Shown: piece after piece, positions 13,109-34,144 of the stretch
How positions within the stretch are numbered: the stretch's first letter is position 1
Layout of the letters: every line of letters starts with the position of its first letter
Assembly (NCBI GenBank): GCA_051531975.1
Contig: JAOPTT010000009.1
Span: 448,001 to 512,000 of the forward strand
Source of the DNA: Spirochaetaceae bacterium
GTDB lineage: Bacteria; Spirochaetota; Spirochaetia; DSM-2461
Length of the DNA: 64,000 bases
Reading direction: 5' to 3'
Notes under the pieces: model-generated
The model's input: the letters and a program-made list of their open reading frames with translations, nothing else
The model's database searches: none
What the model was told of the DNA's origin: nothing
Translations under genes and position numbers: made by a program

Positions 13109-13153
13109 CTATAGTGTAGGTTTAAATATTAACCTATACATTTGGAGTTTGTT

Positions 13154-14094: not shown

Positions 14095-15183
14095 ATGAAG
14101 CTTAATTCCTTAAAAATAACTACAACTATAATAATATTGATTTCAGTAATTTTACCATCAATAATTGTCTCACAATATCTTCTATCATCTATTAGAAAGA
14201 CGATAAAAAAAGAAGCTTATAACGAAGTTTCAAGGGTCAGAGATGAGAAAATAAATCAAATAAAAGATTTTTACTTTCAGGAATTCCATGATATTGAAAA
14301 AATTATCTCATACATATCTATAACTGGAGATGATATTAATAATAAGGATATGAAATACCTGCTTGATTTCCAACCTAATATTAAACAGGTAGTTCTTTAT
14401 GATTATAATTTTAAACCACTTATAAATGTAAGCAGAGAGGGGTTCCTCAAATTAGATTCAATATCTGAGCAAATAAGAATTACATTACAAAAGAATTTTT
14501 ATTTTTCAAAATATTTTCTTAAGAATATCGTACTTCCTGACAATAGTAGTGAATTAGCTTTTTTCTATAAAGATATTATTACAGACCAATATCTATCGAT
14601 GAGCCTAGAATACAGTTATTTAGATAAGTATATTAAAGAAATCGGACCGATAATTATAGACATTTACAATGATAATAGTCAGATCGTTTCATCGTCTAGG
14701 GAAGAGTATGACTCAAGAAAAGTTATTAATAACCCTATAGTTGAGAAAATGAAATTAGGTTTAAGTGAAAATGTACTGTATAAAAGATATTACCAGAGTT
14801 ATAGTCACATTGATATTGGAGGAGAAAGTCTATATGTAAATGTTTCAATCCCAAAATCCTTTGTAGAAAATAAGTCCAAGTACCTAAATACCTATTTAAT
14901 TATAATTTACTTTATATATCTACTGTTTTCGTTACTTATTAGTTCACTTTTGGTTAGATTTTTCTATTCAATAAAAGAGTCCGAAATAAGATCCGAAATA
15001 TTCTCAAATCGTTTCAGTTTTTTTTATAGATTAAAAAACTCATTAAGTTATATTGATAAGAAGTTTGTCGAAGTTCAAAGACTTAATAAGGCTATTAATT
15101 ATTTTAAAAACGATATCTCAATAATACTTCAGGATATACCTAATAAGAGTGAAGATGATGAAGAAACAGAGCTGGATAAATAA
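14095..15183 (+). CDS. Two-TM membrane protein with Cache-like extracytoplasmic domain and short cytoplasmic tail
   Basis: TM helices near both ends; IIIDIYNDNSQIVSS resembles dCache; no kinase, MCP or GGDEF output domain seen. Confidence 0.6.
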   Translation: MKLNSLKITTTIIILISVILPSIIVSQYLLSSIRKTIKKEAYNEVSRVRDEKINQIKDFYFQEFHDIEKIISYISITGDDINNKDMKYLLDFQPNIKQVVLYDYNFKPLINVSREGFLKLDSISEQIRITLQKNFYFSKYFLKNIVLPDNSSELAFFYKDIITDQYLSMSLEYSYLDKYIKEIGPIIIDIYNDNSQIVSSSREEYDSRKVINNPIVEKMKLGLSENVLYKRYYQSYSHIDIGGESLYVNVSIPKSFVENKSKYLNTYLIIIYFIYLLFSLLISSLLVRFFYSIKESEIRSEIFSNRFSFFYRLKNSLSYIDKKFVEVQRLNKAINYFKNDISIILQDIPNKSEDDEETELDK

Positions 15184-18100
15184 AAACTTCTATATTTATA
15201 GATATGATCTATTTTCTCTATTAATAGTTTTCTCATTAATTGCTTGGTTTTTCAGTCCAATGTTACAACAGGGGCATATTGTTTTTAGTGATCTTGATTT
15301 TCCATTAGATTCAAAAAGGTATTTAGAAGAGATACTTGGATTATGGAATAATAAATGGAATACACCAACAATTCTAAATCTTCCAAGGATTTTTTCTATT
15401 GCAATACCATACTTCTTTTCAACCTTAAATGGACACAGCGGTACGGTTCTTATTAAGACGTTTATATTAATGAATATTTATATAAGTAGCTTCACTATAT
15501 ATCTATTTGCTAAATCAATTTTAAGAATATATCTTGGGCCCAAAAATACTCTGTTTAAGCTTATTGCTATATCAACTGGATCTTTATTTTATGCAATTAA
15601 TCCGTGGGTTATATATAGAATCCAACACATATATCTCCTGTGTGGGTATAGTCTACTTCCATTAGCCTTAATGCTATTTTTAAAAATATTTGATCCTAAG
15701 TTTCAAGAAGTTGTAATTCCAAATTATTCAGTATTTAGGATTAAGCTATATAGAAAAAATATCGTTCATATTGGTGTATTAGCTATAACAATATCAGTTA
15801 TGTCTGCGGCTATTCACTACTTTTTTTATACACTAATTTTATTTGCTTTGTTATGGGTTCTACTTTTAGTAAAACAAATTCTACTTAATAGATGGGCAGG
15901 ATCATATTTAAAAAGGGCTATAACATATAATTTTTTCTTAAAAGGTTTTCTATTAGGAATAATAACTTTAATTTTTTGTTATTATTGGTTTTCTGTATAT
16001 CTTGGAAGTATTCTAATTGATGCTCAGTCATCACAGAATAATATAAATGTAGTTGATACGCTTGCACTTTTTAGCAGGTTTAGTTCCATCGATAAGTCAT
16101 TATTAATGATCAGTTACTGGTGGCCAATGTTTGATCTATCAACACTTAATATTCAATTTTATATTGGTGGTATCATACTTCTTCTTGTTATAGGTATTGG
16201 AGTTTTCTTTTACATTAGAAAAAACCATTTACTGCTTTTTCTTTTTATACTAACTGCTCTTTTTTTACTTTTTAGTACAGGTACTACATTGCCTTATTTT
16301 GGAGAATTATTTATTAAACTGGTAATGGATGTTCCTTTTTTTGGTAATCTATTCAGAGATCCTAATAAACTAATAGGAATAGTAGCTATTGGTTACAGTA
16401 TCTTTCTCATTTTTGGTGTAGAAAAAATATTTAGTATTAATATAAAAGGGGTAAATTTAAGTTATTTTATTAAAAGTACACTGTTTCTTGTAATTATAGC
16501 CTCATTTATATTATATATATCACCATTTAGAGAGAGATTTATAAACGGATTTTATTATCCAGTTAACGTTCCAAATGAATATACCGAAGTACAAAAAGAA
16601 TTTATACCAAGTGATAAAAGAGTCTTAAATTTCCCTGTTTCTGGTAATATGTTACAGACCAGTACCGGGTTTACAACATTAGATTGGAACAATAATCCCG
16701 ATGATTTTGGTGAAGATAAAGCTACTGCCGATTTCTCTATTTATCAATCTACAAAAAATACAATCTTCCATCATGAAGGTTCTGATACAAGCATTAGTTA
16801 TTATATAAACTTTCTACAATATATACTTGATCGGGGGTTAACCCAAGACTTTGGATCATATTTAGAACCGCTGGGGGTTGATGAGTTCGCATATGGAACA
16901 GGTTTTTTAGGTCAAAATTATCGACAAAGTTTTAACCTAGATGTTTTAAATTTTCAGAAAGATATCTCTCTACATTATAAAAATAGATACTTCAGTTTAT
17001 ACCAATTAGATAATACACCAGAGGTTGAAGGTGATGTTGATAGCATTTTATATACATCTAAGGGATTTCATTCTATATCATCTATATCCCTTATACCTGG
17101 CTTTACATACGAGAAAATGGGTATTGTTTATAATTCACAGAGAAAGGGGAATCCACTACTTAATATTCGTAATAGTGATTTAATTGAGACTACAACATTT
17201 GATGAACTTTTATTGGCCTCGTTACCTGAAAAATATTACTTATCTCCTGCAAAATATGTACGGAATGGTAACCCATTTTTAGGTTGGTCACAGTCTGCAA
17301 TACATACCTCGGACTGGCTTTGGCATCTTCAATCCCAAAACATAAAACCTTTAAGATTTGATATGAGTTTTCAGTCTGGACTAGCCCTATCTTTTTCCTC
17401 AATTAAGCTGGATATACCAGTTCATAAAAAAAGTAGAGTAAAGGGTAAAGAATATATTGATTTTGAGACATTTCTCTATGAGGGATATAATTTTACAACT
17501 GATAATAACTCAGCAATAGAAATTGAGACTTATCCTCTATCGATAGATCGAGAGTTACCTCTTGTACACGGGATAATTTCAAAAGGGCAAAATTATAACA
17601 TATGGCAGGTTGCTAAAAGTGGCTATATGCCTGCAGAACCTGAAGTTCCTTATCAGTTTTTTTTAACAATATCTGGTAAAGGTACAAACAAGATGCATCT
17701 TAAGGCAAAATTCTATAATAGTCATAATGAAGAAGTTGGGACTGCTTATATTTTGACTCCTGAAAACAGTGTCAATTTTGAATATTTTAATTTTTTCGGT
17801 GAATATATTACACCAAAAGATACGGCATTTGTAAGAATAGATATTCTCAGTTTTAGTAGACCCGAGCAGAATACCCATTGGTGGATACATGATTTCTCAA
17901 TTATAGAACTATCAGAATATAGTGCACCTAATAGGATAACTATAGATTATACACCAGATAATAAGGATGAACTTATACCTTTTGTAAGGATGTTTTTCTC
18001 CCCTGAGGGAGGTGAAGTTTCGATTTCATTAGGAGATAAAGAGACTTTAATAAATACTAAGAAGTATGATTTTAGTGGTTTCTTGTGGCAGAGACTGGAA

Positions 18101-19615
18101 AGTTTTAAACATTTAGGCAATTCATTTCCAGTTATAATCGAAAATAAAGGTGGTTTTAATGGAATAAACGAGATTGTTTTGATACCAAAATCACAGTATC
18201 TGCAGGAGTCATTTATACTTAATGAAGCCATATCAAAATCAAGAAATTTAATATCTTTAGAATCAGAATATGACTTTGACTATATAGGAAGCATACAAAC
18301 ACAACGTAATTATACAAATCTAAGTATGGGTCGGGCTCGGACATCTTTTAATGGAACTTTATCTAATAAAATCGATCTACTTAAAGATGGAAGTTACTAT
18401 TTAACAATGTATCTTGGTGGTGAAGAGAATCTAAGTAATTTTGATATATCTCTAAATGGCATTGATAGCGATGGTAACTTTAAGAAAAAGATCTCAATTT
18501 CAAAAACTGAAACAGAAAACATCGGAGTAATTTTAGAGAATAAAGATTCGGTTAATGGAAGTTATTTCAAAGCTGTTTCGGATTTTCCAGGACTAATACC
18601 AAATCTTCAAAAATATACAATAATTACAGATCCATTACCTAAAGGAAGCTATGAATTAAACATAGATCTTAAATACACTGGTAAATCATTAATCGATATC
18701 AGTAAAATGAAATATTTTAATCCAAAAGAGGTTGTTGTTCCAGATTTTAAAGAACCTGTAGATCTAGATGGGTATAGTGATTGTATTTTTATTACAAGGG
18801 ATATGATAAGGCACAATTTAAGTAAAGATTTCTTGGGGATTGAATATGACCCAACCTGTAGTGCTGATTGGTATATATCATCATCTCCAAAAGTCCTAGT
18901 TAAAAGTGGAGAGGAGTATATTATTAGTTTTAATATGAAGTCGGAAAAACTTAATAGTAGACATACAAAAATACTATATTTAAATGATCTAGATCAGGTT
19001 ATTAAAACTGATTTTATACCTGAAGTAGAAGAAAGGTTTAAAAGAAACTGGAATTCATACCAGTATATTTCAAAAGCCCCTGATAATGCAAAAAGTTTAA
19101 TGTTTCATATCTGGGGTCGAGGAGACAAAAAAGAACAATCATCTTCAAGTATTAAGAACCTATCACTATACCCGTATAAAAATCTCCCATTACTAGACAG
19201 AATGTATATTAGTATGGAACCGTTAGAGACACTTTTTAAGGATATAAAAAGTGATTCTGTATATGCGTCAATAAAGAGTTCTCCAACAATGCGTAAGTTT
19301 GAAAGCAAATATAATAATAATGAAATATCTGCATTTAAATTTGATATTAGCCCACACCCCATATGGGCATTAAATATAAATGGAAATGAAACAATTTCAG
19401 ATACAAATTTAAATGGTTTAAGGGCATTATATTTTACTAAAGATAGTGGAGTAGCTAAAGTTGAGCCAAGATTGAAAACACACTATATCTTGGGGTTTGT
19501 TTTATGGCCTATTGGTTTTTTTATACTTTTTTACTTATATGTTTATGCAAAAAAAAGAGAATCCCTCATTGTATTATTTAGAAGGATTCTCAATAAATTA
19601 TTTAATAAAGAGTAA
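15149..19615 (+). CDS. Large polytopic membrane protein, GT-C-like glycosyltransferase (AftD/DUF3367-like N-terminus) with carbohydrate-binding-like beta domains and a C-terminal TM
   Basis: About 12 N-terminal TM helices, first-loop acidic motif FSDLDFP, FYAINPW and FRDPNK motifs; later CBM-like segments (VKSGEEYIISFNMKSE...WNSYQYISKAPDNAKSL); final TM ILGFVLWPIGFFILFYLYVY. Confidence 0.65.
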   Translation: MKMMKKQSWINKNFYIYRYDLFSLLIVFSLIAWFFSPMLQQGHIVFSDLDFPLDSKRYLEEILGLWNNKWNTPTILNLPRIFSIAIPYFFSTLNGHSGTVLIKTFILMNIYISSFTIYLFAKSILRIYLGPKNTLFKLIAISTGSLFYAINPWVIYRIQHIYLLCGYSLLPLALMLFLKIFDPKFQEVVIPNYSVFRIKLYRKNIVHIGVLAITISVMSAAIHYFFYTLILFALLWVLLLVKQILLNRWAGSYLKRAITYNFFLKGFLLGIITLIFCYYWFSVYLGSILIDAQSSQNNINVVDTLALFSRFSSIDKSLLMISYWWPMFDLSTLNIQFYIGGIILLLVIGIGVFFYIRKNHLLLFLFILTALFLLFSTGTTLPYFGELFIKLVMDVPFFGNLFRDPNKLIGIVAIGYSIFLIFGVEKIFSINIKGVNLSYFIKSTLFLVIIASFILYISPFRERFINGFYYPVNVPNEYTEVQKEFIPSDKRVLNFPVSGNMLQTSTGFTTLDWNNNPDDFGEDKATADFSIYQSTKNTIFHHEGSDTSISYYINFLQYILDRGLTQDFGSYLEPLGVDEFAYGTGFLGQNYRQSFNLDVLNFQKDISLHYKNRYFSLYQLDNTPEVEGDVDSILYTSKGFHSISSISLIPGFTYEKMGIVYNSQRKGNPLLNIRNSDLIETTTFDELLLASLPEKYYLSPAKYVRNGNPFLGWSQSAIHTSDWLWHLQSQNIKPLRFDMSFQSGLALSFSSIKLDIPVHKKSRVKGKEYIDFETFLYEGYNFTTDNNSAIEIETYPLSIDRELPLVHGIISKGQNYNIWQVAKSGYMPAEPEVPYQFFLTISGKGTNKMHLKAKFYNSHNEEVGTAYILTPENSVNFEYFNFFGEYITPKDTAFVRIDILSFSRPEQNTHWWIHDFSIIELSEYSAPNRITIDYTPDNKDELIPFVRMFFSPEGGEVSISLGDKETLINTKKYDFSGFLWQRLESFKHLGNSFPVIIENKGGFNGINEIVLIPKSQYLQESFILNEAISKSRNLISLESEYDFDYIGSIQTQRNYTNLSMGRARTSFNGTLSNKIDLLKDGSYYLTMYLGGEENLSNFDISLNGIDSDGNFKKKISISKTETENIGVILENKDSVNGSYFKAVSDFPGLIPNLQKYTIITDPLPKGSYELNIDLKYTGKSLIDISKMKYFNPKEVVVPDFKEPVDLDGYSDCIFITRDMIRHNLSKDFLGIEYDPTCSADWYISSSPKVLVKSGEEYIISFNMKSEKLNSRHTKILYLNDLDQVIKTDFIPEVEERFKRNWNSYQYISKAPDNAKSLMFHIWGRGDKKEQSSSSIKNLSLYPYKNLPLLDRMYISMEPLETLFKDIKSDSVYASIKSSPTMRKFESKYNNNEISAFKFDISPHPIWALNINGNETISDTNLNGLRALYFTKDSGVAKVEPRLKTHYILGFVLWPIGFFILFYLYVYAKKRESLIVLFRRILNKLFNKE

Positions 19616-21574
19616 TGTATGATTTATATTTCCATTTAAGTCTAGAAACCAATCACTGTCTGATAAACCATCACTATCAACCCAGCTATCATAATTAGTA
19701 TACACCTGGTTTATCTCTACATCATCTTTAGGGTATTTGAAGCTTGAAGGTAAATTAAGCGCCCAAGGACGATTATTTACAGTTTTATAGCTATCACCGT
19801 CAATTACTGTACTATAATCACTAGTTAAAACACTATTGTCATCGACGGAATTAAAATAATCAATATGCACAAGATCTGTTGGAGCTTTCCCAGGTAGGTG
19901 AACTTCCCTTCCTCTCTCTCCATTACTCATAATAAACGGGTTATATGGAGGGTAACCAAGATCGTTTCTAGTTACAGGATCTGTAAACTCAACAGTAATA
20001 ACCATTTCAGTTCCAACATTCTCTACAAAATGTTGTTGTGCTGATTCAAAAATTCCAATTACAGCTTTAGATTGACGTTTTTCAGTTCCATTATTATCTC
20101 TTTTTATATATCCTCTTGAGAATTCTCCTCCTGTTGTATTTGCTATGTTATCAGGACTTAAACCTAGTTCTATAGCAAATCCATTATTCATACTAGCTAG
20201 CATTCCTTGTATTAAGAACCAAGCCTTTATTGATACTACATCACCTGCTGAATTTTTATACTCTTCTATTCTTATATCGATTACTAAATCGTTAAAATCA
20301 TAATCACCCATATGTGGCCAAAGATCCTCATACGCTAGTGTTCCATAATTACCTTCTGAAGGGTAGTAGTCTATTGCTGATAAATTACTATTATTAGGAA
20401 AGCTATCTAATGTATCAATTATTCCATCTCCATCACTATCTATTGTAGGACTATCTTCAGGTACTACTATACCATCCTTATCTATTGCAGTAATTGGGTT
20501 AGACTCTACAGAAAATATTGCGTCATTGAAGTCGTTATCACCATATGGTCTTTCAAGGTCTTCAAAAGATATAATAACTCTTTCATCAAATGCTATCTGA
20601 ACAACATGTTGATTATTAGGACTTTCTTCTTTATTTAATTCATCTATAGAGTAGAATGTATTATTACCATTTCCAACACTTGAGTCCGATTCAAAGCCAT
20701 TTGCAACAAGTGCCCAGGCTATTGTTGTTCCAGCAGAAAAATCACCAATCTTTACAGTATCACCTGAAGTTAAACCACCACCACTTCCACTATATGAAAC
20801 ATTTGGATAAATTATTGTAAGATCACTTTTTTCTATAGTACTTGGAATTCCACTATTAGTTTGATATGTAAAAAATAGTAGTACATTTTTATATCCTGCA
20901 CCTTCATGGACAAAAGTTACAAAGACTTCACCATCTTCGACAATACTTATATTAGTAATAGCACCATCAGAAAGATATTGAGGGTTATTTTCAGGAACAG
21001 GCTGATTTTCTGGAAGAACTGAGTTTAATACAGTTAAAAAATCTGATGTAAACAGTTCATTACTAAGAATATAATCGGGAACACCACTATTATCCCAGCT
21101 TCCTAAAGTTTGATAAGCACTATCTTGTTTTGATTTTGGTTTTCCTCTGGAAAAATATGTAGCATTATTTAAATCTTTGGAAAAATATGTATATTTTATC
21201 TCACCATTTATCAAAGGAACCACGATAGATTGTGGAAGACCAATATAATCTGTTTTTAGAACTATTTCGGTTACATATGCTGGTATCGTTGTTGTTGTAG
21301 TTATCTTACCATTTCTATTAGAAATAACTGAAAGTCTTTTTTGCGTATCAAAATATATATTTATAGGTACGCTGCTAAAAACAGTATCTATATCAAATGA
21401 AACTAGATTTGATGTTTCATAATTAAATTTTTCATTTTCAACAATAATGATATCATTATCATCACCAATATTATCTTCAATAATTTCTTCAAAGTTATCA
21501 TCTATTTGCTCAAAAAACGGGTTTTCACAAGATAAAGAAATTATTATTGTTATTAAAATCGCTATATATTTCAT
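19598..21574 (-). CDS. LruC-domain (DUF4842) lipoprotein with DUF4114-like domain and Ca-binding repeat
   Basis: Start MKYIAILITIIISLSC (lipobox) at 21574 after GGAGG; ISFEDL..DNDFNDAIF; DSDGDGIIDTLDSFP; TLAYEDLWP..GDYDFNDLV; PYNPFI..REVHLP; PWAL. Confidence 0.85.
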   Translation of the reverse strand: MKYIAILITIIISLSCENPFFEQIDDNFEEIIEDNIGDDNDIIIVENEKFNYETSNLVSFDIDTVFSSVPINIYFDTQKRLSVISNRNGKITTTTTIPAYVTEIVLKTDYIGLPQSIVVPLINGEIKYTYFSKDLNNATYFSRGKPKSKQDSAYQTLGSWDNSGVPDYILSNELFTSDFLTVLNSVLPENQPVPENNPQYLSDGAITNISIVEDGEVFVTFVHEGAGYKNVLLFFTYQTNSGIPSTIEKSDLTIIYPNVSYSGSGGGLTSGDTVKIGDFSAGTTIAWALVANGFESDSSVGNGNNTFYSIDELNKEESPNNQHVVQIAFDERVIISFEDLERPYGDNDFNDAIFSVESNPITAIDKDGIVVPEDSPTIDSDGDGIIDTLDSFPNNSNLSAIDYYPSEGNYGTLAYEDLWPHMGDYDFNDLVIDIRIEEYKNSAGDVVSIKAWFLIQGMLASMNNGFAIELGLSPDNIANTTGGEFSRGYIKRDNNGTEKRQSKAVIGIFESAQQHFVENVGTEMVITVEFTDPVTRNDLGYPPYNPFIMSNGERGREVHLPGKAPTDLVHIDYFNSVDDNSVLTSDYSTVIDGDSYKTVNNRPWALNLPSSFKYPKDDVEINQVYTNYDSWVDSDGLSDSDWFLDLNGNINHTLLFIK

Positions 21575-21598
21575 ACTAGCCTCCGCATATAAATAATA

Positions 21599-21614
21599 TG
21601 CACAAACCGTACCA
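21599..21614 (-). promoter_or_regulatory. sigma54 (-24/-12) promoter of the LruC-domain lipoprotein gene
   Basis: Minus strand TGGTACGGTTTGTGCA vs consensus TGGCACG-N4-TTGCW, with exact GG-N10-GC spacing, 24 nt upstream of the ATG. Confidence 0.8.
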
Positions 21615-21617
21615 AGT

Positions 21618-22988
21618 TTACGAAATATTATGCTTATCCATCTTGTAATAGAGTTGTCTTCTAGAAACCCCAAGTTCCTCTGCAACAATTGATTTATTAA
21701 ATCGATTCTTTTTTAAGCATTTTTTTATTAACTGTATCTCTAAGTAATCAATATTTTCTTGGAGATTAAATGAATCTATTTCTTTGTGACTCTTAGCTGT
21801 ATTTGAGTTTAAACTGGATAGTGGAATATCATCTACAGTAATTGTAGTTGATTCACACATTGCAAAGGATCGGGCAATAATATTTTCTAGTTCCCTAATA
21901 TTTCCTGGAAAATCAAAACTTTGCAATTTTTTAACTGCATCTTTATTAATCGTAACTTCTTTCTCATACTCATTATTAAAGTTACGTAAAAAGGTATCGA
22001 TTAGGATGGGAACATCATCTATACGTTCCCTTAATGGTGGAATCTCTATTGGAATAATATTTAATCTATAATATAAATCTTCTCTAAATTCGCCATTAGA
22101 AATAAGTTTAGAAAGGTTTCTATTTGTTGCAGTAATTATTCTTGCATCAGAAAATAGTTTTTCAGTCCCTCCTACTCTTTCAAAAGAACCATCTTGCAAT
22201 ACCCTAAGAAGTTTTACCTGTAGACTAATATCCATATCTCCAATTTCATCAAGAAAAAGTGTTCCTTGATTAGCTAATTCAAAACGACCTTTTTTACTAG
22301 TTATAGCCCCTGTGAAGGCCCCTTTTTCGTAACCAAACATCTCACTTTCTAAAAGGGTAGAAACAATTCCAGCACTATTGGTTTTAATATACGATCTGTT
22401 TTGCCTACTACTTCCGTAGTGTATCTGGTCAGCAATTATCTCTTTACCTGTACCACTCTCGCCTAATATTAGCACAGGGAAATTACTATTCTGAGCTGTT
22501 TTTATCATTTTATGAACACTTAACATTGAATTACTAGAGGCAACAAAATCCTTTGTAATAGTTAAAATCGAGACTCTTTTCTCTAGCAAAGAAATTTTAA
22601 ACTCATTACTTATAATAGTGAACAGTTGATTGAGTTTTAATATCAATTCTTCTAGTATTATAGGTTTAGATATATAGTCATAGACCCCTTTTTTAATAAA
22701 AGAGATTGCATTTGTAACGCTTCCACTACCAGTTATAACTATAATGTATGGAGGATGTTCATATTTAAGTAGAATATCGATTAATACACTACCACCTTTT
22801 TTAGGCATTTTTAAATCAACTAATACAATATCAAATTTTATAAGATTTAGTTCGGTTATTGCACTATCTACAGAAGATACACATTTTAGAAATATTTCGT
22901 CCCATATTTCTGATCTTCTTAAACCACGCTCTAAGGAGTTTAAATACGATGTTTCATCGTCAACAATTAGTATACTTTTTTTTATCAT
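21618..22988 (-). CDS. sigma54-dependent response regulator (NtrC/AtoC family: REC-AAA+-Fis HTH)
   Basis: LIVDDE, DLKMP, GESGTGKE, ESEMFGYEKGAFTGA, LFLDEIGD, FPGNIRELEN, C-terminal HTH. Confidence 0.95.
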   Translation of the reverse strand: MIKKSILIVDDETSYLNSLERGLRRSEIWDEIFLKCVSSVDSAITELNLIKFDIVLVDLKMPKKGGSVLIDILLKYEHPPYIIVITGSGSVTNAISFIKKGVYDYISKPIILEELILKLNQLFTIISNEFKISLLEKRVSILTITKDFVASSNSMLSVHKMIKTAQNSNFPVLILGESGTGKEIIADQIHYGSSRQNRSYIKTNSAGIVSTLLESEMFGYEKGAFTGAITSKKGRFELANQGTLFLDEIGDMDISLQVKLLRVLQDGSFERVGGTEKLFSDARIITATNRNLSKLISNGEFREDLYYRLNIIPIEIPPLRERIDDVPILIDTFLRNFNNEYEKEVTINKDAVKKLQSFDFPGNIRELENIIARSFAMCESTTITVDDIPLSSLNSNTAKSHKEIDSFNLQENIDYLEIQLIKKCLKKNRFNKSIVAEELGVSRRQLYYKMDKHNIS

Positions 22989-23032
22989 AAATTTGTTTTC
23001 CTAATATTAATAGTATATGATTAATTGATAAT

Positions 23033-23047
23033 ATACAAATTTTGCAC
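23033..23047. promoter_or_regulatory. Imperfect palindrome, candidate operator in the divergent regulator/flippase intergenic region
   Basis: ATACAAATTTTGCAC (RYRCAAA-W-TTTGYRY symmetry); overlaps a possible -35 (TTGTAT-N17-TACTAT, minus strand) of the regulator. Confidence 0.35.
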
Positions 23048-23081
23048 ACTTTGAGTTAATCTTTTCTCATAAGGAAATAAA

Positions 23082-25426: not shown

Positions 25427-25435
25427 GAGATTAAA

Positions 25436-26314
25436 ATGAATAATTTAGTATCTATAGTAATAACTACGTATAACAACAAATTAAAGGTAGACGAAGCCAT
25501 ATTAAGTTCAGTACATCAGAGCCATAAAAACCTTAATATTATTGTTGTTGATGACGGATCAATTGATGGCACCCCTGAACACTTAACATCTCTTGCTGAA
25601 GAACATTCTGGGTTAAAATTAATTCTTAAAGAGCACGGAGAGAGAGGATTAGCTCGGGAAGCAGGTATAAAACTTTCAATGGAATTAGGTAGTGATTATC
25701 TGTTTTTTATGGATGATGATATGATTCTAGACTATCAGTTAGTAGAACTATGCCTTAAGTATTTTACATCTTATGAGAATTTAGGAGCTTTAGTAATACC
25801 TGAGAGACCATATTCAACTTATACAAATTTCTACAGTAAAGTAAAAGTATTTGAAAGGTCTATTATTAATAATGCAGGTAGGACCCTAGGGAAAAACTCA
25901 ATTGAGGCTGCACGGTTTTGGAAGATGAATGCATATAACCAATCAGGTGGGCTAAATCCCACAGAGATATCATTCGAGGAGACTCAACCAACAATAAGAT
26001 ATAGGGATAATGGTGGATATATTTTAAGAGCAGTTGATACATTTCTACGTCATGATGAAAAAGAAGCAACATTTAAAGGGATAATTTCCAAAAAATATTA
26101 CTACTTTAACTTAATGAATAAGACTTTCGAGTCAGAAGATAAAGGTTTTTTAAAGGCTCTAAGTAGATGGTATTTTTTTAGACCCGTACTATATAGAGCA
26201 GGTAATATACTTAGAGCTCTTAGGCATCCCATATTAGCTATGGGCATGTTTTTTATGTATGTTTGCCTAAGTTTTACTGGCGTTGTTGCACTACTTAGAA
26301 AGCCTAGACTTTAA
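25436..26314 (+). CDS. Glycosyltransferase family 2
   Basis: VSIVITTYN, IIVVDDGSIDGT, FFMDDD DXD motif; C-terminal hydrophobic segment. Confidence 0.92.
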   Translation: MNNLVSIVITTYNNKLKVDEAILSSVHQSHKNLNIIVVDDGSIDGTPEHLTSLAEEHSGLKLILKEHGERGLAREAGIKLSMELGSDYLFFMDDDMILDYQLVELCLKYFTSYENLGALVIPERPYSTYTNFYSKVKVFERSIINNAGRTLGKNSIEAARFWKMNAYNQSGGLNPTEISFEETQPTIRYRDNGGYILRAVDTFLRHDEKEATFKGIISKKYYYFNLMNKTFESEDKGFLKALSRWYFFRPVLYRAGNILRALRHPILAMGMFFMYVCLSFTGVVALLRKPRL

Positions 26315-26686
26315 ATAAGCTGCGTAATCAATTGATTCATTTATAATCTTGATTGCATCAGCTTCAAGTTTCCAGGGTTTGGTTATAAATCTATATACTT
26401 CACCACTATTCATTGCGTGTAATATTGTTGTTACATCAGCATAACCTGTAAGCATAACACGTACACTTCCAGGGGAGCACTCTTTTGATTTCTGTAGCAA
26501 CTCAAAACCATTCATTTCTGGCATTAGAATATCAGATATAATAACATCAGGTTTTCTTAAATTTATTTCCTTTAAAGCATCAATAGCACTTGTAAAGTAA
26601 AAACCATTAAAATCTTCATTCCTAAAAGCTCTTTTTATACTATTTAATACACTTTGTTCATCATCTATAAAAAATACTTCATTCAT
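26291..26686 (-). CDS. Single-domain response regulator
   Basis: FIDDE, ISDILMPEMNG, LTGYAD, FITKPW. Confidence 0.92.
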   Translation of the reverse strand: MNEVFFIDDEQSVLNSIKRAFRNEDFNGFYFTSAIDALKEINLRKPDVIISDILMPEMNGFELLQKSKECSPGSVRVMLTGYADVTTILHAMNSGEVYRFITKPWKLEADAIKIINESIDYAAYLKSRLSK

Positions 26687-27789
26687 ATTTTACCTCTATT
26701 TTGTTTTGGAATTGAAAAAATTGCCTTTATAAACATTAGTGAATCTTTAATAATATTTATGTGTGAACCCTCTCTGTCATAACAAGTAACTGGAAGTTGT
26801 AAAACTCTAAACCTATATTTTTTCGCTAAATATAACATTTCTAAGTCTGCTGCTAATCCATTTTGTATATGCATATTATTAAGCAAAGTCTTAGCAACAG
26901 AACTTCGCATTCCCTTTAATCCTGTTTGTGAGTCTTTAACTCCATATGGTAACAACCCCTTAGTTAAAAAACGTTTTACAAAACTCATAAGTCTTCTTAT
27001 TGGTTTTCGATCCTCTGCAGTTTGGTCCTTAGTTCCAACAATAAAATCATAATAACCATCCTGGAGTATATTAATCATCTTTGATACATCTTCCATAATA
27101 AATGAATCATCACCATCGAGAAAAAAGATATATTCCGCATCTACATTTTTAATTCCCTCAATGTAAGTACCAGCTTTACGGGTATTAACAATTAGGTTAT
27201 GAGCAGAAAACAAAGGGCTCTTTTCAACTATATTGATCTCTTCATTTTTAGAGCTTACCATTTTGTTTAGAAGATTCAATGTGTCATCTTTACTTCCATC
27301 ATTTACAAAATATATTGATGAGTTAATAAATGAGTTTTCAATTAATCCTTGTAATTTTTTTGTTTGATTTAAAATATTCTGAAATCTTTGTTCTTCGTCA
27401 AATACTGAAACAATAATAGCTATGTCATGTTTCTTCCAAGGATATTCTGGGTGAATGAGACTTTGACTATTAAGTAAAACTGAAGCTTTAAATCTATCCC
27501 TATATTCTAAAACTCTTGTAGCACCTAACCCATTTACATGTTTCAATATTTTAGTATTTGTAGAGTTAGGATAATTAACCAATAATAAAATAGGTATAGA
27601 ACTATCCTTACTTCTAATTTCATTTGCAATACTAATAGAATCATCTTGATCAAATAAATCAATAATGACTAATAGCAGATTCTCAATAATATATGTTTTA
27701 TCCAAAAAGGTAGCTTTGTAATATCCTAATATTGATTCATACTCAATTGATCTTTTTTGGTCGCTGTAAACTCCAATTGCCTCGGTCAT
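26683..27789 (-). CDS. Receiver-like domain fused to GT2 polyprenol-phosphate glycosyltransferase (DPG/DPM synthase-like)
   Basis: N-term LLVIIDL...EIRSKDSSIPILLL...GATRVL (REC-like); C-term FVNDGSKDDT, RKAG, FLDGD, DSQTGLKG, ADLEMLYLAKK. Confidence 0.8.
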   Translation of the reverse strand: MTEAIGVYSDQKRSIEYESILGYYKATFLDKTYIIENLLLVIIDLFDQDDSISIANEIRSKDSSIPILLLVNYPNSTNTKILKHVNGLGATRVLEYRDRFKASVLLNSQSLIHPEYPWKKHDIAIIVSVFDEEQRFQNILNQTKKLQGLIENSFINSSIYFVNDGSKDDTLNLLNKMVSSKNEEINIVEKSPLFSAHNLIVNTRKAGTYIEGIKNVDAEYIFFLDGDDSFIMEDVSKMINILQDGYYDFIVGTKDQTAEDRKPIRRLMSFVKRFLTKGLLPYGVKDSQTGLKGMRSSVAKTLLNNMHIQNGLAADLEMLYLAKKYRFRVLQLPVTCYDREGSHINIIKDSLMFIKAIFSIPKQNRGKI

Positions 27790-27840
27790 AATCTCTCCTT
27801 TTATAAATTATATTTCTTTTTATATCTTAAATATTAAAAT

Positions 27841-29043
27841 CTAAAAAATTATTTGTTGTAGCTTTAATACTAACTGAAATCCTAAGTCTCTAGTTTGGAT
27901 TTCTTCTATAACAGAAAATCCCTCTGGTTTTAGTACAGATATGTAAATTTCAAAAAGAGTATCTTCTGACCAAAGATTTTTCCACTTTAACCCACCTGAA
28001 AATATAGTTCCAATAAATGAGTCTTCTCTATCTTCAATGTCATATGTTTTAGCAGTAAAATGTGATGATGCACTTAACCAAATGTTAATATTATCTTTAT
28101 CCCATGATTGATTAAGTCCAATACTATTTAATCCGTAAATATTACCAGCCTCTTGATAGAGGTAGTTAAAATGAGAGCCATAATGAAATTCAAGATTCTT
28201 ATTATCAATAGATGTAAAGTTATAGTTATCTGTTATTTCGTCATTACTAGTTAGATGTGCACCAAGAATTTTCGTCTTAAAATTGAAATAATTAATTGAA
28301 ACTTCTTCCCTTATAGCCCATGTAGAGACTTCATCACGGTACGCTAATCCAACAAAAGTATTAGCCTCTACAAAATCTAAATTTATATTATGATTAACTG
28401 ATGGGTATATGGAATTAAAAAAATTAGAGTCCTGATACTCTATAGGGAGCCTAAACAAAACTTTGTTACTTTGTAAGTTTAGATCAATTCCTAATAAGTT
28501 AATTATTAAATTGTCATCATTATATTTTTCACTATTAAAATCGTATGAACCATCATCATTATAAGTATTAAATAAGCTATAAAAAATTCCTGAATAAAAG
28601 ACATCTAAAATATCAGATTTATAACCTAATTCACCCTGACCTGTTGTAACTGTTGTTCCAAATCCAAAGGGCAACGATGCATTATATTTCCCAAACTTTA
28701 TATAAAGTGGGGAGTCTTTATAATATCCTTGATAAAATGTATCTGCTTTTAATTGACCACTAAGTTCTCCATCTTTTCCAAAACTACCATCTAGACTGCC
28801 AAGAGAACCAAAAAGTTCTATATTTAATAAAAGTATATTTCGGTTATCAGTCCATATAAATTGTGCAGTTAAAGATGTTAATAATTTAGAAATAGGAGTA
28901 TTGTCAATTTCATTACCATCGTCATCATATATTAAATTAACTTCATCATAATTCTCATAAATTAATGCTGGTATACCACCAATTTGAACTTCAGAATATA
29001 ATCTTAAAGGAATTAATAATAATAAAATAATGATTTTTTTCAT
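27841..29043 (-). CDS. Exported protein, candidate outer-membrane beta-barrel
   Basis: Signal peptide MKKIIILLLLIPLRLYS, many amphipathic aromatic/Gly-rich strands, terminal Phe. Confidence 0.55.
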   Translation of the reverse strand: MKKIIILLLLIPLRLYSEVQIGGIPALIYENYDEVNLIYDDDGNEIDNTPISKLLTSLTAQFIWTDNRNILLLNIELFGSLGSLDGSFGKDGELSGQLKADTFYQGYYKDSPLYIKFGKYNASLPFGFGTTVTTGQGELGYKSDILDVFYSGIFYSLFNTYNDDGSYDFNSEKYNDDNLIINLLGIDLNLQSNKVLFRLPIEYQDSNFFNSIYPSVNHNINLDFVEANTFVGLAYRDEVSTWAIREEVSINYFNFKTKILGAHLTSNDEITDNYNFTSIDNKNLEFHYGSHFNYLYQEAGNIYGLNSIGLNQSWDKDNINIWLSASSHFTAKTYDIEDREDSFIGTIFSGGLKWKNLWSEDTLFEIYISVLKPEGFSVIEEIQTRDLGFQLVLKLQQIIF

Positions 29044-30194
29044 TATTTATCAATCTCAATTGTTAATATTGTAATATCATCATCTATCTCTTCTGTTAGA
29101 TGACGATCATAAATAGATTTTAGGATCTTGGTATGATTTGAAAGATCATTTATATTTTCCTGGAGAATATTAATTAAATCATCTTCTGTATAAATCTCAG
29201 AACTATTTCCTGAAGGATATATACCGTCAGAACAGATAAAGATTTTTGAAGAAGGTTTAATTTCTATTGTTTCATTTGTGTAACTATTATCCTTTTCAAT
29301 TCCAAGTACGATATTATTATTTTCTATAATTGAAACACTATTATTATTAAGTATTATTGGTCTAGGCTGTCCAGAATTTGTGCAAGTACAGAGTTTATTG
29401 TCCAGATCAATGTATAGACATGTTAATGTTACAAAAAGCCCCGGATAAGGTTTTAAATAATCATAGAGTCTATTATTAAGCCATTGTGTAAACTTAATAG
29501 TTGAAAAGCTGTCGGTTTGAATATTTTTGAAATATTCAAAAGGAATTATTGATTTTAAAGCCATGGAGATAAATGCAGGTTGTATTCCGTGACCTGAGAC
29601 ATCCCCTAAAAGAACCACAATTTTCGTCTCTGATAATTTAAAAATATCATAGTAGTCACCACTGACACCAGTACTTATACAAGGTTGGTAAGTTACATTT
29701 ATTGTAATAGGAAGATCTTTTTTTATAGCATTATCCATAATAGTCTTTTGAAAATCCCTAGCCAAATGAAGCTCTCTTTTTATCTTCTCTTTTAATTCCC
29801 TATTCTCTTTTTTTATTAGAAAGTGATTCATTGCCTTTTTAATCTCTTCTTGCAATTCAATGTTTTGCCATGGTTTTCCAATGAAAGAAAATATCTGAGA
29901 TTTAATCATTTTCTCCATATCTTTCAAGTCCGAATGACCTGAGAGTATAATTGGGACAATATCTGGATATTTGTTTTGAATAATTGATATAAGTTCATTA
30001 CCGTTTAAATCAGGCATTCTTTGGTCAGATACAATGACACCAATTTCTTTTGAATAACTTTTTAGCTCCCTAATAGCATCTTTTGCGGAAGTTACCATAA
30101 TCGCTGTTATCCCTTCATCCCTAAACCAATTCTTTAGGCTTCTATTAATAGAGGTTAGAACATTTTTATCATCATCAATAAATAGTATATACAT
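29043..30194 (-). CDS. Response regulator with PP2C/SpoIIE phosphatase output (RsbU-like)
   Basis: REC (FIDDD, SDQRMP, KPW) + SGDYYD, LGDVSGHG, NSGQP, CSDGI, DDDITIL. Confidence 0.92.
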   Translation of the reverse strand: MYILFIDDDKNVLTSINRSLKNWFRDEGITAIMVTSAKDAIRELKSYSKEIGVIVSDQRMPDLNGNELISIIQNKYPDIVPIILSGHSDLKDMEKMIKSQIFSFIGKPWQNIELQEEIKKAMNHFLIKKENRELKEKIKRELHLARDFQKTIMDNAIKKDLPITINVTYQPCISTGVSGDYYDIFKLSETKIVVLLGDVSGHGIQPAFISMALKSIIPFEYFKNIQTDSFSTIKFTQWLNNRLYDYLKPYPGLFVTLTCLYIDLDNKLCTCTNSGQPRPIILNNNSVSIIENNNIVLGIEKDNSYTNETIEIKPSSKIFICSDGIYPSGNSSEIYTEDDLINILQENINDLSNHTKILKSIYDRHLTEEIDDDITILTIEIDK

Positions 30195-30199
30195 CTGTA

Positions 30200-30961
30200 T
30201 TATCCTTCTATTCTTTCAAAAAGAATTAAAAACTTATATGGGTCTGATGGTCTTAATAATCTAATAAATATAACATAGTTATGTTCGGATATTTTTAACT
30301 CAAAATCTTTTTGATCTGCATTATTATGTGCCCCTGATTCTATATTTTTATACATTTCTTTAGAAATTATAGTTGTAATGTGATCCCCTATTACAAAGTT
30401 TTTTTCTAGCTCTTCTTTTGCATATTTATTAAAATTATCGATTATACCTTTCTCATTAATTGCTATTATTGAAATATTCACTTCATCGATAACTTGTTTA
30501 TCAAGAACAAGACTTGAATCTCTAAAGGATAACTTCATCTTAAGTCGGCGATTTTCTTCTAAAATTTGCTCAATATACTTTTTCTTTTTTACTTCAGATT
30601 CCCATTTCCCAATAGCCTGATTAATACAATCTAGCATCTCATCATAATTCCAAGGTTTGGAAATAAATCTAAATATTTCACCTTGGTTAATCGCATTTAT
30701 AATAGTTTCACTATCAGCGTATCCAGATAAAATAATTCGAATTGTAGCTGGGTAGAGAGTTTTTACTTGTTTCATTAACTCTAAACCATTCATTTCCGGC
30801 ATTCTTTCATCTGACAAAATGACTTTATAATTTCCCGCTTTAAGTAGTTCAAGAGCTTCATTCCCACTGTTACAGGTATCAATAGTAAATTTTTCTTTTC
30901 TAAACTGTCTTTTTATTGAGGATAATATCTCTTTTTCATCATCAACAAACAATATTTCCAT
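30200..30961 (-). CDS. Response regulator with coiled coil and PAS-like C-terminus
   Basis: FVDDE, SDERMPEMNG, LSGYAD, KPW; IIAINEKGIIDNFNKYA is PAS-like. Confidence 0.85.
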   Translation of the reverse strand: MEILFVDDEKEILSSIKRQFRKEKFTIDTCNSGNEALELLKAGNYKVILSDERMPEMNGLELMKQVKTLYPATIRIILSGYADSETIINAINQGEIFRFISKPWNYDEMLDCINQAIGKWESEVKKKKYIEQILEENRRLKMKLSFRDSSLVLDKQVIDEVNISIIAINEKGIIDNFNKYAKEELEKNFVIGDHITTIISKEMYKNIESGAHNNADQKDFELKISEHNYVIFIRLLRPSDPYKFLILFERIEG

Positions 30962-31059
30962 TATTACCCCATAATGTAATTTTTATTTATTTCATCTTAT
31001 ATTTCAAGCAATTTATTTTTGTATTTGTATTTTTCTCACAGTTAAATAATAATTATATT

Positions 31060-32298
31060 ATGAAAAGTTTATTGAAAAAAATTACAATTTTATCTTTTTT
31101 TTTAATTCCACTGTTTGATTTAATATCTGAAACAAATGAATCATATAAAATATACTTAAATGCAGATATGAGTGGTTCTAAATTATCAGGGGAAGCAATC
31201 GAGATGGGAATTAATGTCGCATTATCCGAGGTGAACTATACAATAGGTGATCGCAAAATTGAACTTGTAATTAAAGATCATCATGGGAATAGTAGGCGTA
31301 GTTTAAAATATCTCGAAGAGTTTGCATCAGATGAGAATGCATTAGTTACATATACTGGGCTCCACTCATCTGCAATTATCAACAATTTTGATTATATAAA
31401 TAAAAATGGAATACCAATATTAAATCCATGGGCTGCAGCTGGTCCTATAAGTAGGAGTATTGATAGTCTTGGTAGAAATTGGATATTTAGATTATCAGTC
31501 GATGATACTAAAGCAGGAGAGGTTATTACTTCATATTCCCTCGATGTTGAGAAGTTTAAAAATCCTATTTTGTTACTTGAAAACACACCATGGGGTAAAT
31601 CAAATTATAAAAATATGAGAAAAGCTATAACATCAAGGGGTTTCAGAGATCCTGAAGTAATATGGTTTTCTTGGGGAATTAAAGAGATAGGTAGCAAACA
31701 AATTCTAAGTGATATATATAGTAAAAATAATGATGTTATTTTTTTTGTTGGTAATTCACCAGAGGGGATCGTCTTTTCTAGAGCGATGTCTCAGAGAGAA
31801 GAAAATAAAAGAATTCCGATAAGGAGTCATTGGGGTATTACTGGAGGGAATTTTTTTGAGAGTTTAGGTTCTAATATTATAACTAATAAAATAGATCTTA
31901 AATTTATCCAAACCTCATTCTCGTTTTTGGATAAACCTGGAACAGATTTCTCTATTAATGTTTTTAAAAATATAAAAAAACAATTTTCAAATATCAAAGA
32001 TCCAAATGACTTAAAAGCACCAAATGGATTTATACATTCCTACGATTTAACTAGAATATTTATTGAAGCGTGTAAACATATTAATTTTACTGAAGATATT
32101 AAGCTAAATAGGGAATTATTAAGAGTTGCATTAGAATCAGTTGAAACACCAATAAAAGGACTTGTTAAAACCTATAATAAACCATTTTCAACATTTACCC
32201 CCGAAAATGACTCTGCACACGAAGCCCTTAGTATTGATAACTTTAGGATGGCCAGATATCTACCAAATGGTAGTATCGAGGTTATTAATGATAAGTAA
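31060..32298 (+). CDS. Periplasmic binding protein (LivJ/type-1 PBP family) paired with a histidine kinase
   Basis: AIEMGINVALSEVN...KIELVIKDHHGN, GLHSS, PWAA, FRLSVDD, HSYDLT; start moved to ATG 31060 (signal peptide); overlaps the kinase start. Confidence 0.82.
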   Translation: MKSLLKKITILSFFLIPLFDLISETNESYKIYLNADMSGSKLSGEAIEMGINVALSEVNYTIGDRKIELVIKDHHGNSRRSLKYLEEFASDENALVTYTGLHSSAIINNFDYINKNGIPILNPWAAAGPISRSIDSLGRNWIFRLSVDDTKAGEVITSYSLDVEKFKNPILLLENTPWGKSNYKNMRKAITSRGFRDPEVIWFSWGIKEIGSKQILSDIYSKNNDVIFFVGNSPEGIVFSRAMSQREENKRIPIRSHWGITGGNFFESLGSNIITNKIDLKFIQTSFSFLDKPGTDFSINVFKNIKKQFSNIKDPNDLKAPNGFIHSYDLTRIFIEACKHINFTEDIKLNRELLRVALESVETPIKGLVKTYNKPFSTFTPENDSAHEALSIDNFRMARYLPNGSIEVINDK

Positions 32299-34144
32299 CA
32301 TATTAAAAAAACGTAATAGCATATTATTAAAAACGGCAATATATTCATTTGGTATTTTTGGACTGATTATGTTCTTTTCTATTACACTATTTATATGGAT
32401 AACTGAAAGAAACCTTACTGAACTTGTTATAGATCAAAACGTTGAGCAATTATTTAATATTAAAACTCAATTTGATAAAAATATTGATAACTATAAATTT
32501 ATACTTGAACAGGATTCAAATTCCTCCATATTTACAACCGCAGTTATGAATCCTGTAGATACAGAGTATTATTTAAAAGATTTTATGGATGATCTAAAAA
32601 TAAGTAATCTAGACGGAGAATTACTACTATTAGCATTTGATGGACAGATAATATATAGCACACACAACTCCGTAAATAAGATTAATAATATATTTACAAA
32701 CTTTTCAGAAATTCTAGAAGTATTAGATACCAAAAAAAGTACACAAATATTAGATGCCAATAATAATGTAGTTTTTATAAGTTGTATTAAATATAATGAT
32801 CTAGTTGAGGGGTATCTAATTTTTATAACCGATTTTCAGAATATCTTTGAACATAACCTTCATCTTTTTGAATCTGATACACATAAGCACTCATTTTCAG
32901 TATTAAATGGCAAGAATATTATTGCTAAAGTTGGCGAAACATCTGAAAGATTTATCAGCTCTAATTTTACTCTTGAAAGTTTACCACTATCGTTACAAAT
33001 AGATACGGATGAAAATGTTATTAAGGAATCTACAAGTGAAATACTACATAGTATTAGTTTAATATCAATATTATCTGTTATTTTACTTGCTATAATTTTC
33101 TCAATTATAACATCAAAAACAGTTACAAAACCATTATCAATACTTGAACATGAAATCACTTTAGTTGGGAAAGGTGAACATGATAATCTACCCTTTAGAA
33201 AGAAAGACCCAATAGAAATTAAGTTTTTAAGGTCGTCATTTAATCAAATGCAAAAGGCTATAATAACTAATAAAGTGGAATTAGAAGAGTTTAATAGAAA
33301 ACTTTTAAGTATCAACAGCGATTTAAAGTCAACTCAGAAGCAGTTAGTACAAAGTGAGAAAATGGCTTCATTGGGGCAATTAGCCGCAGGTGTTGCACAT
33401 GAAATTAACAATCCTACAGGTTTTGTAACAACCAATTTACATACAATGAAAGAGTATATTTGTGTTTATAATACTCTTTATAAACATAATGAAGAACTTT
33501 ACAGCTATATAAAAGACAATATTAAAGAAACACAAATATTGAAGTTTATTGAGGATATAGAAATTATAAAAAAAGAAGAAGATTTTAAATTCATATTAGA
33601 AGACACTACGGATCTGCTTGAAGAATCAATTGACGGTGTTGTTAGAATAAAAGATATTGTTACAGGTCTTAGGAATTTCGCAAGACCTAAAAGTAAAATA
33701 ACTTCACCAGGAAATATAAATAACGGCATAAAGGATGCTTTAAGGTTAACAATAAATGAGCTAAAATATACATGTACTATAGAGCAGAACTTAGGAAAAT
33801 TAGTTGATGTTCCTTGTAGATTAGATCAAATAACACAGGTTTTTGTAAATTTACTTGTAAATGCGGCTCATGCAATAAAAGATCAAGGTTTTATAAAACT
33901 TACTACCTGGCAAGAAGATGAATTTATATTTGCATCAGTTGAAGATAATGGAGAAGGAATAAAACCTGAGAATATTGAAAAACTTTTTGATCCTTTTTTT
34001 ACAACAAAAGAAGTTGGTAAGGGAACTGGCTTAGGACTTTCAATCTCTTATGGAATAATAGAAGAGCATGGAGGTTCTATAGATGTCAGAAGCAAAGTTG
34101 GTGAAGGAACTTGTTTTACTCTTAAATTCCCCATAAACACCTAG
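32288..34144 (+). CDS. Sensor histidine kinase (2 TM, HAMP, NtrB-like HisKA/HATPase)
   Basis: QSEKMASLGQLAAGVAHEINNP, QVFVNLLVNA, DNGEGI, FDPFFTTKEVGKGTGLGL. Confidence 0.95.
   Translation: MISNILKKRNSILLKTAIYSFGIFGLIMFFSITLFIWITERNLTELVIDQNVEQLFNIKTQFDKNIDNYKFILEQDSNSSIFTTAVMNPVDTEYYLKDFMDDLKISNLDGELLLLAFDGQIIYSTHNSVNKINNIFTNFSEILEVLDTKKSTQILDANNNVVFISCIKYNDLVEGYLIFITDFQNIFEHNLHLFESDTHKHSFSVLNGKNIIAKVGETSERFISSNFTLESLPLSLQIDTDENVIKESTSEILHSISLISILSVILLAIIFSIITSKTVTKPLSILEHEITLVGKGEHDNLPFRKKDPIEIKFLRSSFNQMQKAIITNKVELEEFNRKLLSINSDLKSTQKQLVQSEKMASLGQLAAGVAHEINNPTGFVTTNLHTMKEYICVYNTLYKHNEELYSYIKDNIKETQILKFIEDIEIIKKEEDFKFILEDTTDLLEESIDGVVRIKDIVTGLRNFARPKSKITSPGNINNGIKDALRLTINELKYTCTIEQNLGKLVDVPCRLDQITQVFVNLLVNAAHAIKDQGFIKLTTWQEDEFIFASVEDNGEGIKPENIEKLFDPFFTTKEVGKGTGLGLSISYGIIEEHGGSIDVRSKVGEGTCFTLKFPINT

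Follow-up and report, generated by a model that had tools for sequence, protein, structure and literature searches.

A predicted AftD-like GT-C glycosyltransferase and its conserved neighbours in a spirochaete and other bacteria: an apparently undescribed variant of extracytoplasmic glycan assembly

The locus and its giant GT-C protein

The 64,000-nucleotide stretch of DNA analysed here (the window) comprises positions 448,001 to 512,000 of contig JAOPTT010000009.1 (assembly GCA_051531975.1) from a member of the Spirochaetaceae, and we are concerned with the block of genes at 14095-34144, in which a very large membrane protein, the giant, stands among glycosyltransferase, flippase and signalling genes. 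A sequence-only reading had proposed that this 20-kb block is a signal-controlled surface-glycan system. All the genes it listed are intact open reading frames (ORFs) at the positions claimed, and the gaps between neighbours, -26 to 98 bp, bear out the tight packing; the block falls into seven strand units, alternating, and a single operon is excluded. The revised starts are 15158 (probable) for the giant, 21574 for the LruC-domain protein, 31060 for the binding protein and 32288 for the histidine kinase. A Pfam/NCBIfam scan confirmed a GT4, two GT2s, LruC, Peripla_BP_6, HisKA/HATPase and four canonical receivers; for the giant, the flippase, the barrel candidate and the protein starting at 14095 no Pfam match passed, and their assignments come from other evidence. 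The repeats found inside it reflect either chance or the codons of paralogous receivers. The host is a spirochaete by its FlaA genes and by its neighbours in the language-model search Atlas, and its genome has a GC content of about 30% and carries sigma54.

We use the term core for the giant, a GT4, a GT2, a flippase and the donor-type GT2 or REC-GT2, by which is meant a GT2 of the polyprenol-phosphate-sugar-synthase type. The giant is encoded on the plus strand at 15149-19615, and its residue numbers refer to the 1488-aa ORF. The MOP/Wzx-like flippase (23082-24281, plus strand; 399 aa with nine or more transmembrane segments, TMs) was recognised from its orthologues, which match Polysacc_synt PF01943 with E values of 7e-8 (locus L001) and 4e-11 (L044). 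It is followed on the same strand by the GT4 (24266-25426; PF00534, E 3e-32), which has an N-terminal WRD motif, and by the GT2 (25436-26314; PF00535), which has one C-terminal TM. The donor-type GT2 (26683-27789, minus strand) has as its best NCBIfam matches AglJ and PpgS, both at E 4e-10 and both under cut-off; PgfS and ArnC (E 0.008) match as well, again below cut-off. At its N-terminus it carries the fifth of the five receivers that had been listed, which is an atypical receiver-like domain rather than a canonical one: it has no Pfam match and was found by HHalign with a probability of 89%, while 20 shuffles of the columns gave no more than 1.2%, and the Asp is kept in 22 of 24 orthologues whereas the canonical Thr/Ser and Lys are not kept.

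When residues 1-640 of the giant were modelled (AF2, pLDDT 90), the model had the GT-C fold that had been claimed for it, with a multi-TM core, EL1 after TM1 and an outer alpha/beta domain. AftD took the top three places in a Foldseek search with this model (best E 1.5e-7, TM 0.58). In VIA, AftD (Z 20.8, root-mean-square deviation 3.8 over 474 residues) was tied with AglB (Z 20.9, 4.9 over 446 residues), and the top 12 rows were all GT-C enzymes, with Z of 12.7-20.9. The GT-C super-domain spans residues 1-620, and in the model of residues 620-1488 (pLDDT 88) it is followed by four carbohydrate-binding module (CBM)-like sandwiches arranged as two nested pairs (Z 10-12.5), a further beta domain and one C-terminal TM.

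Profile searches also led to AftD. A broad profile, A7, built from the window giant and 60 distant relatives out of 150 listed (61 sequences), had AftD as its sole match among solved structures (E 3.7e-17), the match taking in the GT-C region as well as the final beta domain with its TM; the close-family profile A1 matched nothing in the PDB, and only A7 reached AftD. D48, an acidic residue in EL1, is kept in all ungapped alignment rows (32/32 and 60/60), and in the broad alignment R403 is kept in 60 and K/R407 in 58 of the 61 rows. In the accessible part of the AftD report the residues K39, D41, E251, K361 and D474 are given as essential, the protein has 16 TMs and three CBMs, and its PSI-BLAST homologues are confined to Actinobacteria (10.1101/2019.12.22.885152). 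The profile alignment pairs D303, W324 and K407 of the giant with AftD E251, W272 and K361, using a hand-derived offset of 3 for the AftD chain numbering. Because the structure match, the broad profile match and the paired active-site residues agree, we take the giant, on its predicted fold and alignments, to be an AftD-like GT-C that probably works like AftD and lies outside the Pfam AftD family.

AftD (PF11847; PDB 6W98, 6WBX) is an arabinofuranosyltransferase of the mycobacterial wall. The likeness to it extends from the GT-C super-domain of about 600 residues, the tandem CBMs and a final beta domain that runs into a TM to the length of about 1400-1490 aa, the paired active-site residues and the C-terminal return to the membrane. 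The two differ in that identity is only about 10%, the giant has four CBM-like domains where AftD has three, its outer domain is followed by a single TM where AftD, which also binds ACP, has five, and its hosts lie outside Actinobacteria. The Pfam GT-C_AftD cut-off (PF11847) was passed by none of 35 giant-family members and by no protein of the host genome, and below the cut-off it matched 2 of 44 distant relatives. Genes for the decaprenyl-phospho-arabinose donor, from which AftD serves an arabinan acceptor, were not found among the window proteins or recurrent neighbours scanned, a comparison that did not extend to a genome search for DprE1/E2.

Conservation of the core in other genomes

Among 7991 candidates scored there were 120 homologues of the giant, nearly all near full length, from Clostridium, Paenibacillus, Brevibacillus, Exiguobacterium, Propionigenium, Margulisbacteria and others, and searching with a profile built on the N-terminal part gave 1299 representatives at E of 0.001 or less. 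Named matches include Clostridium acetobutylicum, C. saccharoperbutylacetonicum, C. cellulovorans, Paenibacillus and Exiguobacterium, where the annotation goes no further than hypothetical protein, MFS transporter or membrane protein. The Halobellus ramosii plasmid NZ_CP101826.1 carries a giant of more remote kinship (L103, 1409-5308; E 2e-93 with the broad profile), which is annotated as a DMT family transporter and is placed between a matching GT4 on one side and a glycosyltransferase and flippase on the other. The distribution is patchy: the system was found in 7 of 401 genomes of a sample of the Paenibacillus phylum, six of them strong, and in 6 of 401 genomes of the class of the window, four of them strong, but in none of three genomes of the same genus. 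The spirochaete giants cluster together (FastTree support 0.97).

For the neighbourhood, 53 metagenome loci, one from Paenibacillus, three from spirochaete genomes (G021, G500 and G519) and the window were pooled, and the resulting 58 loci gave 41 non-redundant ones after merging at 90% identity, many of them short. Sixteen wide loci have at least 8 kb upstream and at least 7 kb downstream; the window, with 7.1 kb upstream used, is left out of these. In the wide loci the GT4 and the GT2 were each found 15 times, the flippase and the donor-type GT2 14 times each, the sensor-like protein encoded in the window at 14095 13 times and any receiver or kinase 15 times, and these were accompanied by a ManC-like gene in 9, Hpt in 6, PMI in 3 and LruC in 2. 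The corresponding numbers for all 41 loci are 23 (GT4), 25 (GT2), 21 (flippase), 23 (donor-type GT2), 27 (sensor-like protein), 29 (receiver or kinase), 13 (ManC-like), 14 (Hpt), 6 (PMI) and 3 (LruC). Hence the idea of co-occurrence across phyla held, the core genes and the sensor-like protein being present in 13 to 15 of the 16 wide loci.

The wide loci that miss core partners are G519 and L047. In the latter, which belongs to a divergent Bacillota clade, the GT2 with donor-synthase motifs has no receiver, an unclassified membrane protein occupies the slot of the flippase, and in this clade there were no regulators within the flanks. Gene order differs between lineages, as do the regulators, and fusions of flippase with giant, of GT2 with giant (P0109) and of flippase with GT4 occur among the loci. 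The local sensor control that had been suggested stands as a lasting linkage to two-component genes, but not as a fixed set of regulators.

Some of these loci show further features. Locus L055 (4989-16618) holds a tetratricopeptide repeat (TPR)/beta-rich protein, an 1800-aa flippase-giant fusion, a GT2, a GT4 and a SAM methyltransferase, and its GT4-methyltransferase pair is reminiscent of Rv0224c-Rv0225. In L036, L038, L053 and L057 the core genes are split into many ORFs, probably by assembly frameshifts. Two adjacent ORFs downstream of the Paenibacillus cluster (L001, 18930-21748) resemble, by eye, group II intron reverse transcriptases.

Families of Wzy, Wzz, Wza and phosphoglycosyltransferases (PGTs) were absent from the 17 window proteins scanned, and the 17 representatives of recurrent neighbours likewise contained no in-cluster PGT, Wzy, Wzz/Wzc or Wza, with the limit in both cases that Pfam catches Wzy poorly. 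A standard Wzx/Wzy cluster was rejected for this reason, in agreement with the poor fit noted before. Elsewhere in the host genome there are two PGTs of the Bac_transf family and two PF00953 matches, and contig C2 of the same assembly (G000) has, at about 11-64 kb, a polysaccharide region of its own, in which two PGTs stand with a homologue of ManC and more GT4/GT2 genes. In the open literature searched, which lacks most subscription journals, we found no description of the cluster. The core is conserved, and it appears to be an undescribed variant of GT-C extracytoplasmic glycan assembly.

Regulators, LruC and barrel in spirochaetes

The protein closest to the core is the kinase-less sensor-like membrane protein at 14095-15183 (plus strand), whose gene overlaps the start of the giant and whose family lies directly upstream of the giant in the loci counted above. 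It is predicted to have two TMs flanking an outer domain of about 240 aa, followed by a short coiled coil. The outer domain may be Cache-like, the fold matches being weak (E 0.5-0.8). Five of 24 aligned members (L010, L011, L014, L017 and L018) run on into a HATPase_c domain, and these forms may show the origin of the kinase-less sensor.

The other regulators in the window are an NtrC-type sigma54 activator (21618-22988, minus strand; REC-AAA-HTH by Pfam/NCBIfam, GAFTGA intact), a stand-alone receiver protein (26291-26686, minus; PF00072), a REC-SpoIIE/PP2C phosphatase (29043-30194, minus; by Pfam, with homologues in G021 at 26% and G500 at 39%), a REC-PAS protein (30200-30961, minus; Pfam) and a two-TM sensor histidine kinase (32288-34144, plus; HisKA/HATPase), the sensor region of which has the G500 kinase as its sole match among the collected loci. 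Just before the kinase lies a periplasmic binding protein (31060-32298, plus; PBP6, Peripla_BP_6 by Pfam). It is locus-specific: when the window protein was used as query it was not found in G021, G500 or G519, so that the place given to it in the sequence-only reading was not supported and it was rejected as core.

The LruC-domain lipoprotein (19598-21574, minus; TIGR04456, E 2e-61) has a lipobox-like Cys16, DUF4114 and DUF4842, and the predicted outer-membrane beta-barrel (27841-29043, minus) is alginate-export-like, with a signal-like N-terminus, a C-terminal Phe and, in the language-model search Atlas, a value of 0.96 to Alginate_exp clusters (11 of 30 matches). The window, G021 of the same family and G500 of another family share LruC, a barrel candidate of about 400 aa, the sigma54 activator, receivers, REC-PP2C and kinases, with 26-56% identity for most genes, and in all three LruC stands tail-to-tail with the giant. 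LruC, the barrel and the sigma54 activator were found together in 3 of the 41 loci, all of them spirochaetes; they are spirochaete add-ons and not core. LruC had been regarded as a pillar of the system, and with its low counts, 3 of 41 and 2 of 16 wide loci, it was dropped from the core.

A predicted sigma54 -24/-12 promoter of lruC lies at 21600-21614 (minus strand), scored on an 11-position consensus. The motif occurs about 25-45 nt upstream of lruC in all three spirochaetes, with 9/11 matches in the window, 11/11 in G021 and 10/11 in G500, compared to a background of at least 9/11 before 21 of 3957 ORFs of the genome, and in 12 stand-alone LruC loci, whose gene starts are approximate, there was none of at least 8/11. 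Since the motif precedes lruC in three of three spirochaetes, LruC, the barrel and the activator look wired into the spirochaete locus. A possible internal promoter (24158-24172, plus; 9/11) lies 93 nt before the GT4; a near-identical 15-mer precedes the GT4 in G500, and none at 9/11 is there in G021. From sequence, these motifs appear to link the activator to lruC and probably to the GT4.

It might be argued that the glycan core is real but has nothing to do with LruC, the barrel and the regulators, which would then be mere passengers. LruC is indeed common without the core: 17 of 201 genomes of the class have it and all 13 other LruC loci inspected, with 1.5 kb per side, were without a core gene; the binding protein, too, is peculiar to this locus. 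However, the extended set is kept, though reshuffled, in three genomes of two families, the sigma54 motifs are conserved, and 9 of the 31 top LruC homologues may share a contig with a giant homologue, as judged indirectly and by eye. We therefore consider it quite improbable that these genes are passengers.

Outside these genomes, the two best LruC matches in a plasmid collection are both from Chondrinema and lie near sigma54 regulators; one, L101 (NZ_CP111049.1), is a full-length LruC homologue whose cluster also contains several glycosyltransferases and a sugar transferase, together with a hybrid kinase and a sigma54 regulator, whereas a Plesiomonas match is without sigma54 or glycosyltransferase context. 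The 1097-aa protein P0321 joins a membrane GT2 to a full LruC and has an internal signal-like stretch; it is a genuine fusion or else two neighbouring genes that have lost the stop codon separating them. The accessible text on Leptospira LruC describes an outer-membrane lipoprotein and gives it no biochemical role (PMC9901810); the window protein shares with it the LruC domain in a lipoprotein but is only 28% identical over 38% of the protein, and its subfamily adds DUF4114.

Other export candidates accompany the core elsewhere. A different signal-bearing beta-rich protein is present in 5 of the 41 loci, and in four of these five the giant is closest to that of Propionigenium; L055 has its TPR protein, with the beta-rich C-terminus, just upstream of the core; homology between the spirochaete barrel and the beta-rich protein of the Propionigenium clade was not detected (probability 0.9%), and the loci nearest Paenibacillus and Exiguobacterium have neither the beta-rich nor the TPR candidate. 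We read these candidates, in three unrelated forms, as the repeated recruitment of an outer-membrane exit, and this favours a secreted polymer.

Beyond the block, two AraC-like regulators and an 813-aa protein resembling, by eye, a GH31 glycosidase lie at 6552-11883; a PF00487 fatty-acid-desaturase-family gene and a substrate-binding-like protein, not seen in related loci, stand just upstream of the block (12015-13873); and a three-domain rhodanese (PF00581), followed by genes that by eye resemble an osmoprotectant ABC transporter, occupies 34272-39433.

A proposed pathway and its alternatives

From the predicted structures and sequence matches taken together we lean towards a reading in which a glycosyltransferase-flippase core around the AftD-like GT-C builds a lipid-phosphate-linked oligosaccharide, flips it and adds it by the GT-C to a growing surface or matrix polysaccharide, with barrel export in two-membrane hosts. 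This keeps the lipid-linked flip-and-transfer logic of the sequence-only reading and adds to it that the enzyme is specifically AftD-like, that the protein encoded at 14095 is almost part of the core, and that the activator is linked by sigma54 motifs to lruC and probably to the GT4. REC-GT2 would load a hexose, perhaps mannose, on undecaprenyl phosphate, the neighbouring ManC-like and PMI genes (9 and 3 of the 16 wide loci) pointing to a hexose; the GT4 and the second GT2 would extend the lipid-linked sugar at the inner face, and the MOP flippase would carry the oligosaccharide outward. There the GT-C would hand it to a glycan acceptor gripped by the CBM-like domains, so that a polymer is lengthened or branched; in the accessible text on AftD, EmbC and ORF12 the CBMs bind the acceptor polysaccharide (PMC11127046). 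The barrel would then export the product in two-membrane hosts, and in spirochaetes the LruC lipoprotein would bind or anchor it. The signalling genes beside the core likely switch it on: the kinase and receivers would feed the sigma54 activator, which would turn on lruC and probably GT4-GT2, and the receiver-like domain on REC-GT2 and the kinase-less sensor by the GT-C may act on the enzymes directly.

Three-component systems use a small GtrA-type flippase. Their likeness to this locus (GtrABC; Citrobacter ORF12/14/15) lies in the putative lipid-P-sugar synthase, the flippase and the GT-C with CBM, the trio that defines them in the accessible text (PMC11127046), and it raises the alternative that the locus is an elaborated form of such decoration. 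Its product would then be a lipid-P-sugar donor, which after flipping would supply side chains for a glycolipid or wall polymer of separate origin. The CBMs suit a ready-made glycan acceptor, and there is a match, though weak, to the trehalose-lipid protein MmpA (giant residues 338-512, E 1.6e-6, 27 bits against a cut-off of 210). However, here the flippase is of the MOP type, and with 399 aa, nine or more TMs and Polysacc_synt orthologues it is not a small GtrA-type protein; two additional cytoplasmic transferases are conserved, some lineages add barrel or TPR genes and there is built-in signalling, and the hosts of the core, some with one membrane, some with two and, at a greater distance, archaea, differ in their wall polymers. 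We regard such decoration as rather unlikely. MmpA (Rv0226c) and the mycobacterial Rv0224c-aftD region offer a further comparison, since a GT4 stands next to an AftD-like gene there too, but the MmpA match is far under cut-off and none of the named hosts belongs to the mycolic-acid bacteria.

Another explanation is protein glycosylation like the euryarchaeal Dol-P-linked type, with the giant as the oligosaccharyltransferase (OST) and LruC or S-layer proteins as acceptors. AglB is level with AftD in VIA, AglJ is the best NCBIfam match of REC-GT2, and a lipoprotein gene adjoins the giant in spirochaetes. Nevertheless, WWDYG, the hallmark motif of OSTs, is absent from the giant family alignment A5, the sequence profile recovers AftD and no OST, the giant has tandem CBMs, and LruC is absent from 38 of the 41 loci, many of which are short. 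OST membership of the giant was rejected on the missing motif and the lack of an OST sequence match. Of the two outputs suggested earlier, matrix or biofilm and protein glycosylation, the second is thus the weaker, and we hold it to be unlikely.

Several observations weigh against the assembly pathway that we favour. G519 carries the sensor and giant alone on a 29.6-kb contig, and ManC and PMI are absent from the window cluster, their homologues lying on other contigs of the genome. In the profile alignment AftD K39/D41 lie immediately ahead of the part that aligns, and D474 lies within an insertion. Given that AglB scores level with AftD in structure, the acceptor might be a protein. The PGTs found elsewhere in the genome might also lend the pathway a primer linked through pyrophosphate. 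The barrel candidate has neither a Pfam match (PF13372 included) nor a PDB sequence match, a single language-model search standing behind its assignment, and the receiver-like domain on the donor-type GT2, having lost the usual Thr and Lys, may escape phosphorylation. In none of the three spirochaetes does a sigma54 motif precede the unit of sensor and giant, nor is there one of 9/11 near lruC in the two Chondrinema loci.

On the regulatory side, the activator SypG of the syp locus of Vibrio fischeri is sigma54-dependent. The likeness to syp, in the accessible text, is in regulation only, polysaccharide genes standing there with kinases, SypG and the REC-PP2C protein SypE (PMC3610818); homology of the biosynthetic core is not part of it, and the locus showed neither a STAS protein like SypA nor the kinase domain of SypE.

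We put forward only tentatively a more far-reaching proposal, namely a widespread route in which the AftD-like GT-C polymerises undecaprenyl-monophosphate oligosaccharides with neither PGT nor Wzy, the receiver domain on the lipid-loading GT2 and the kinase-less sensor next to the polymerase throttle the route directly, and LruC serves as the surface binding protein. AftD has been studied in mycobacteria; since an AftD-like enzyme, probably with its whole supply line, is present in cultured, non-pathogenic bacteria (with Clostridium, Paenibacillus and Exiguobacterium among the named matches), AftD-like products become testable outside them. The product of the system may be a capsule or biofilm polymer that has so far gone unrecognised, and for LruC domains a possible function is suggested: surface glycan binding, which, if true, would be the first biochemical role for LruC.

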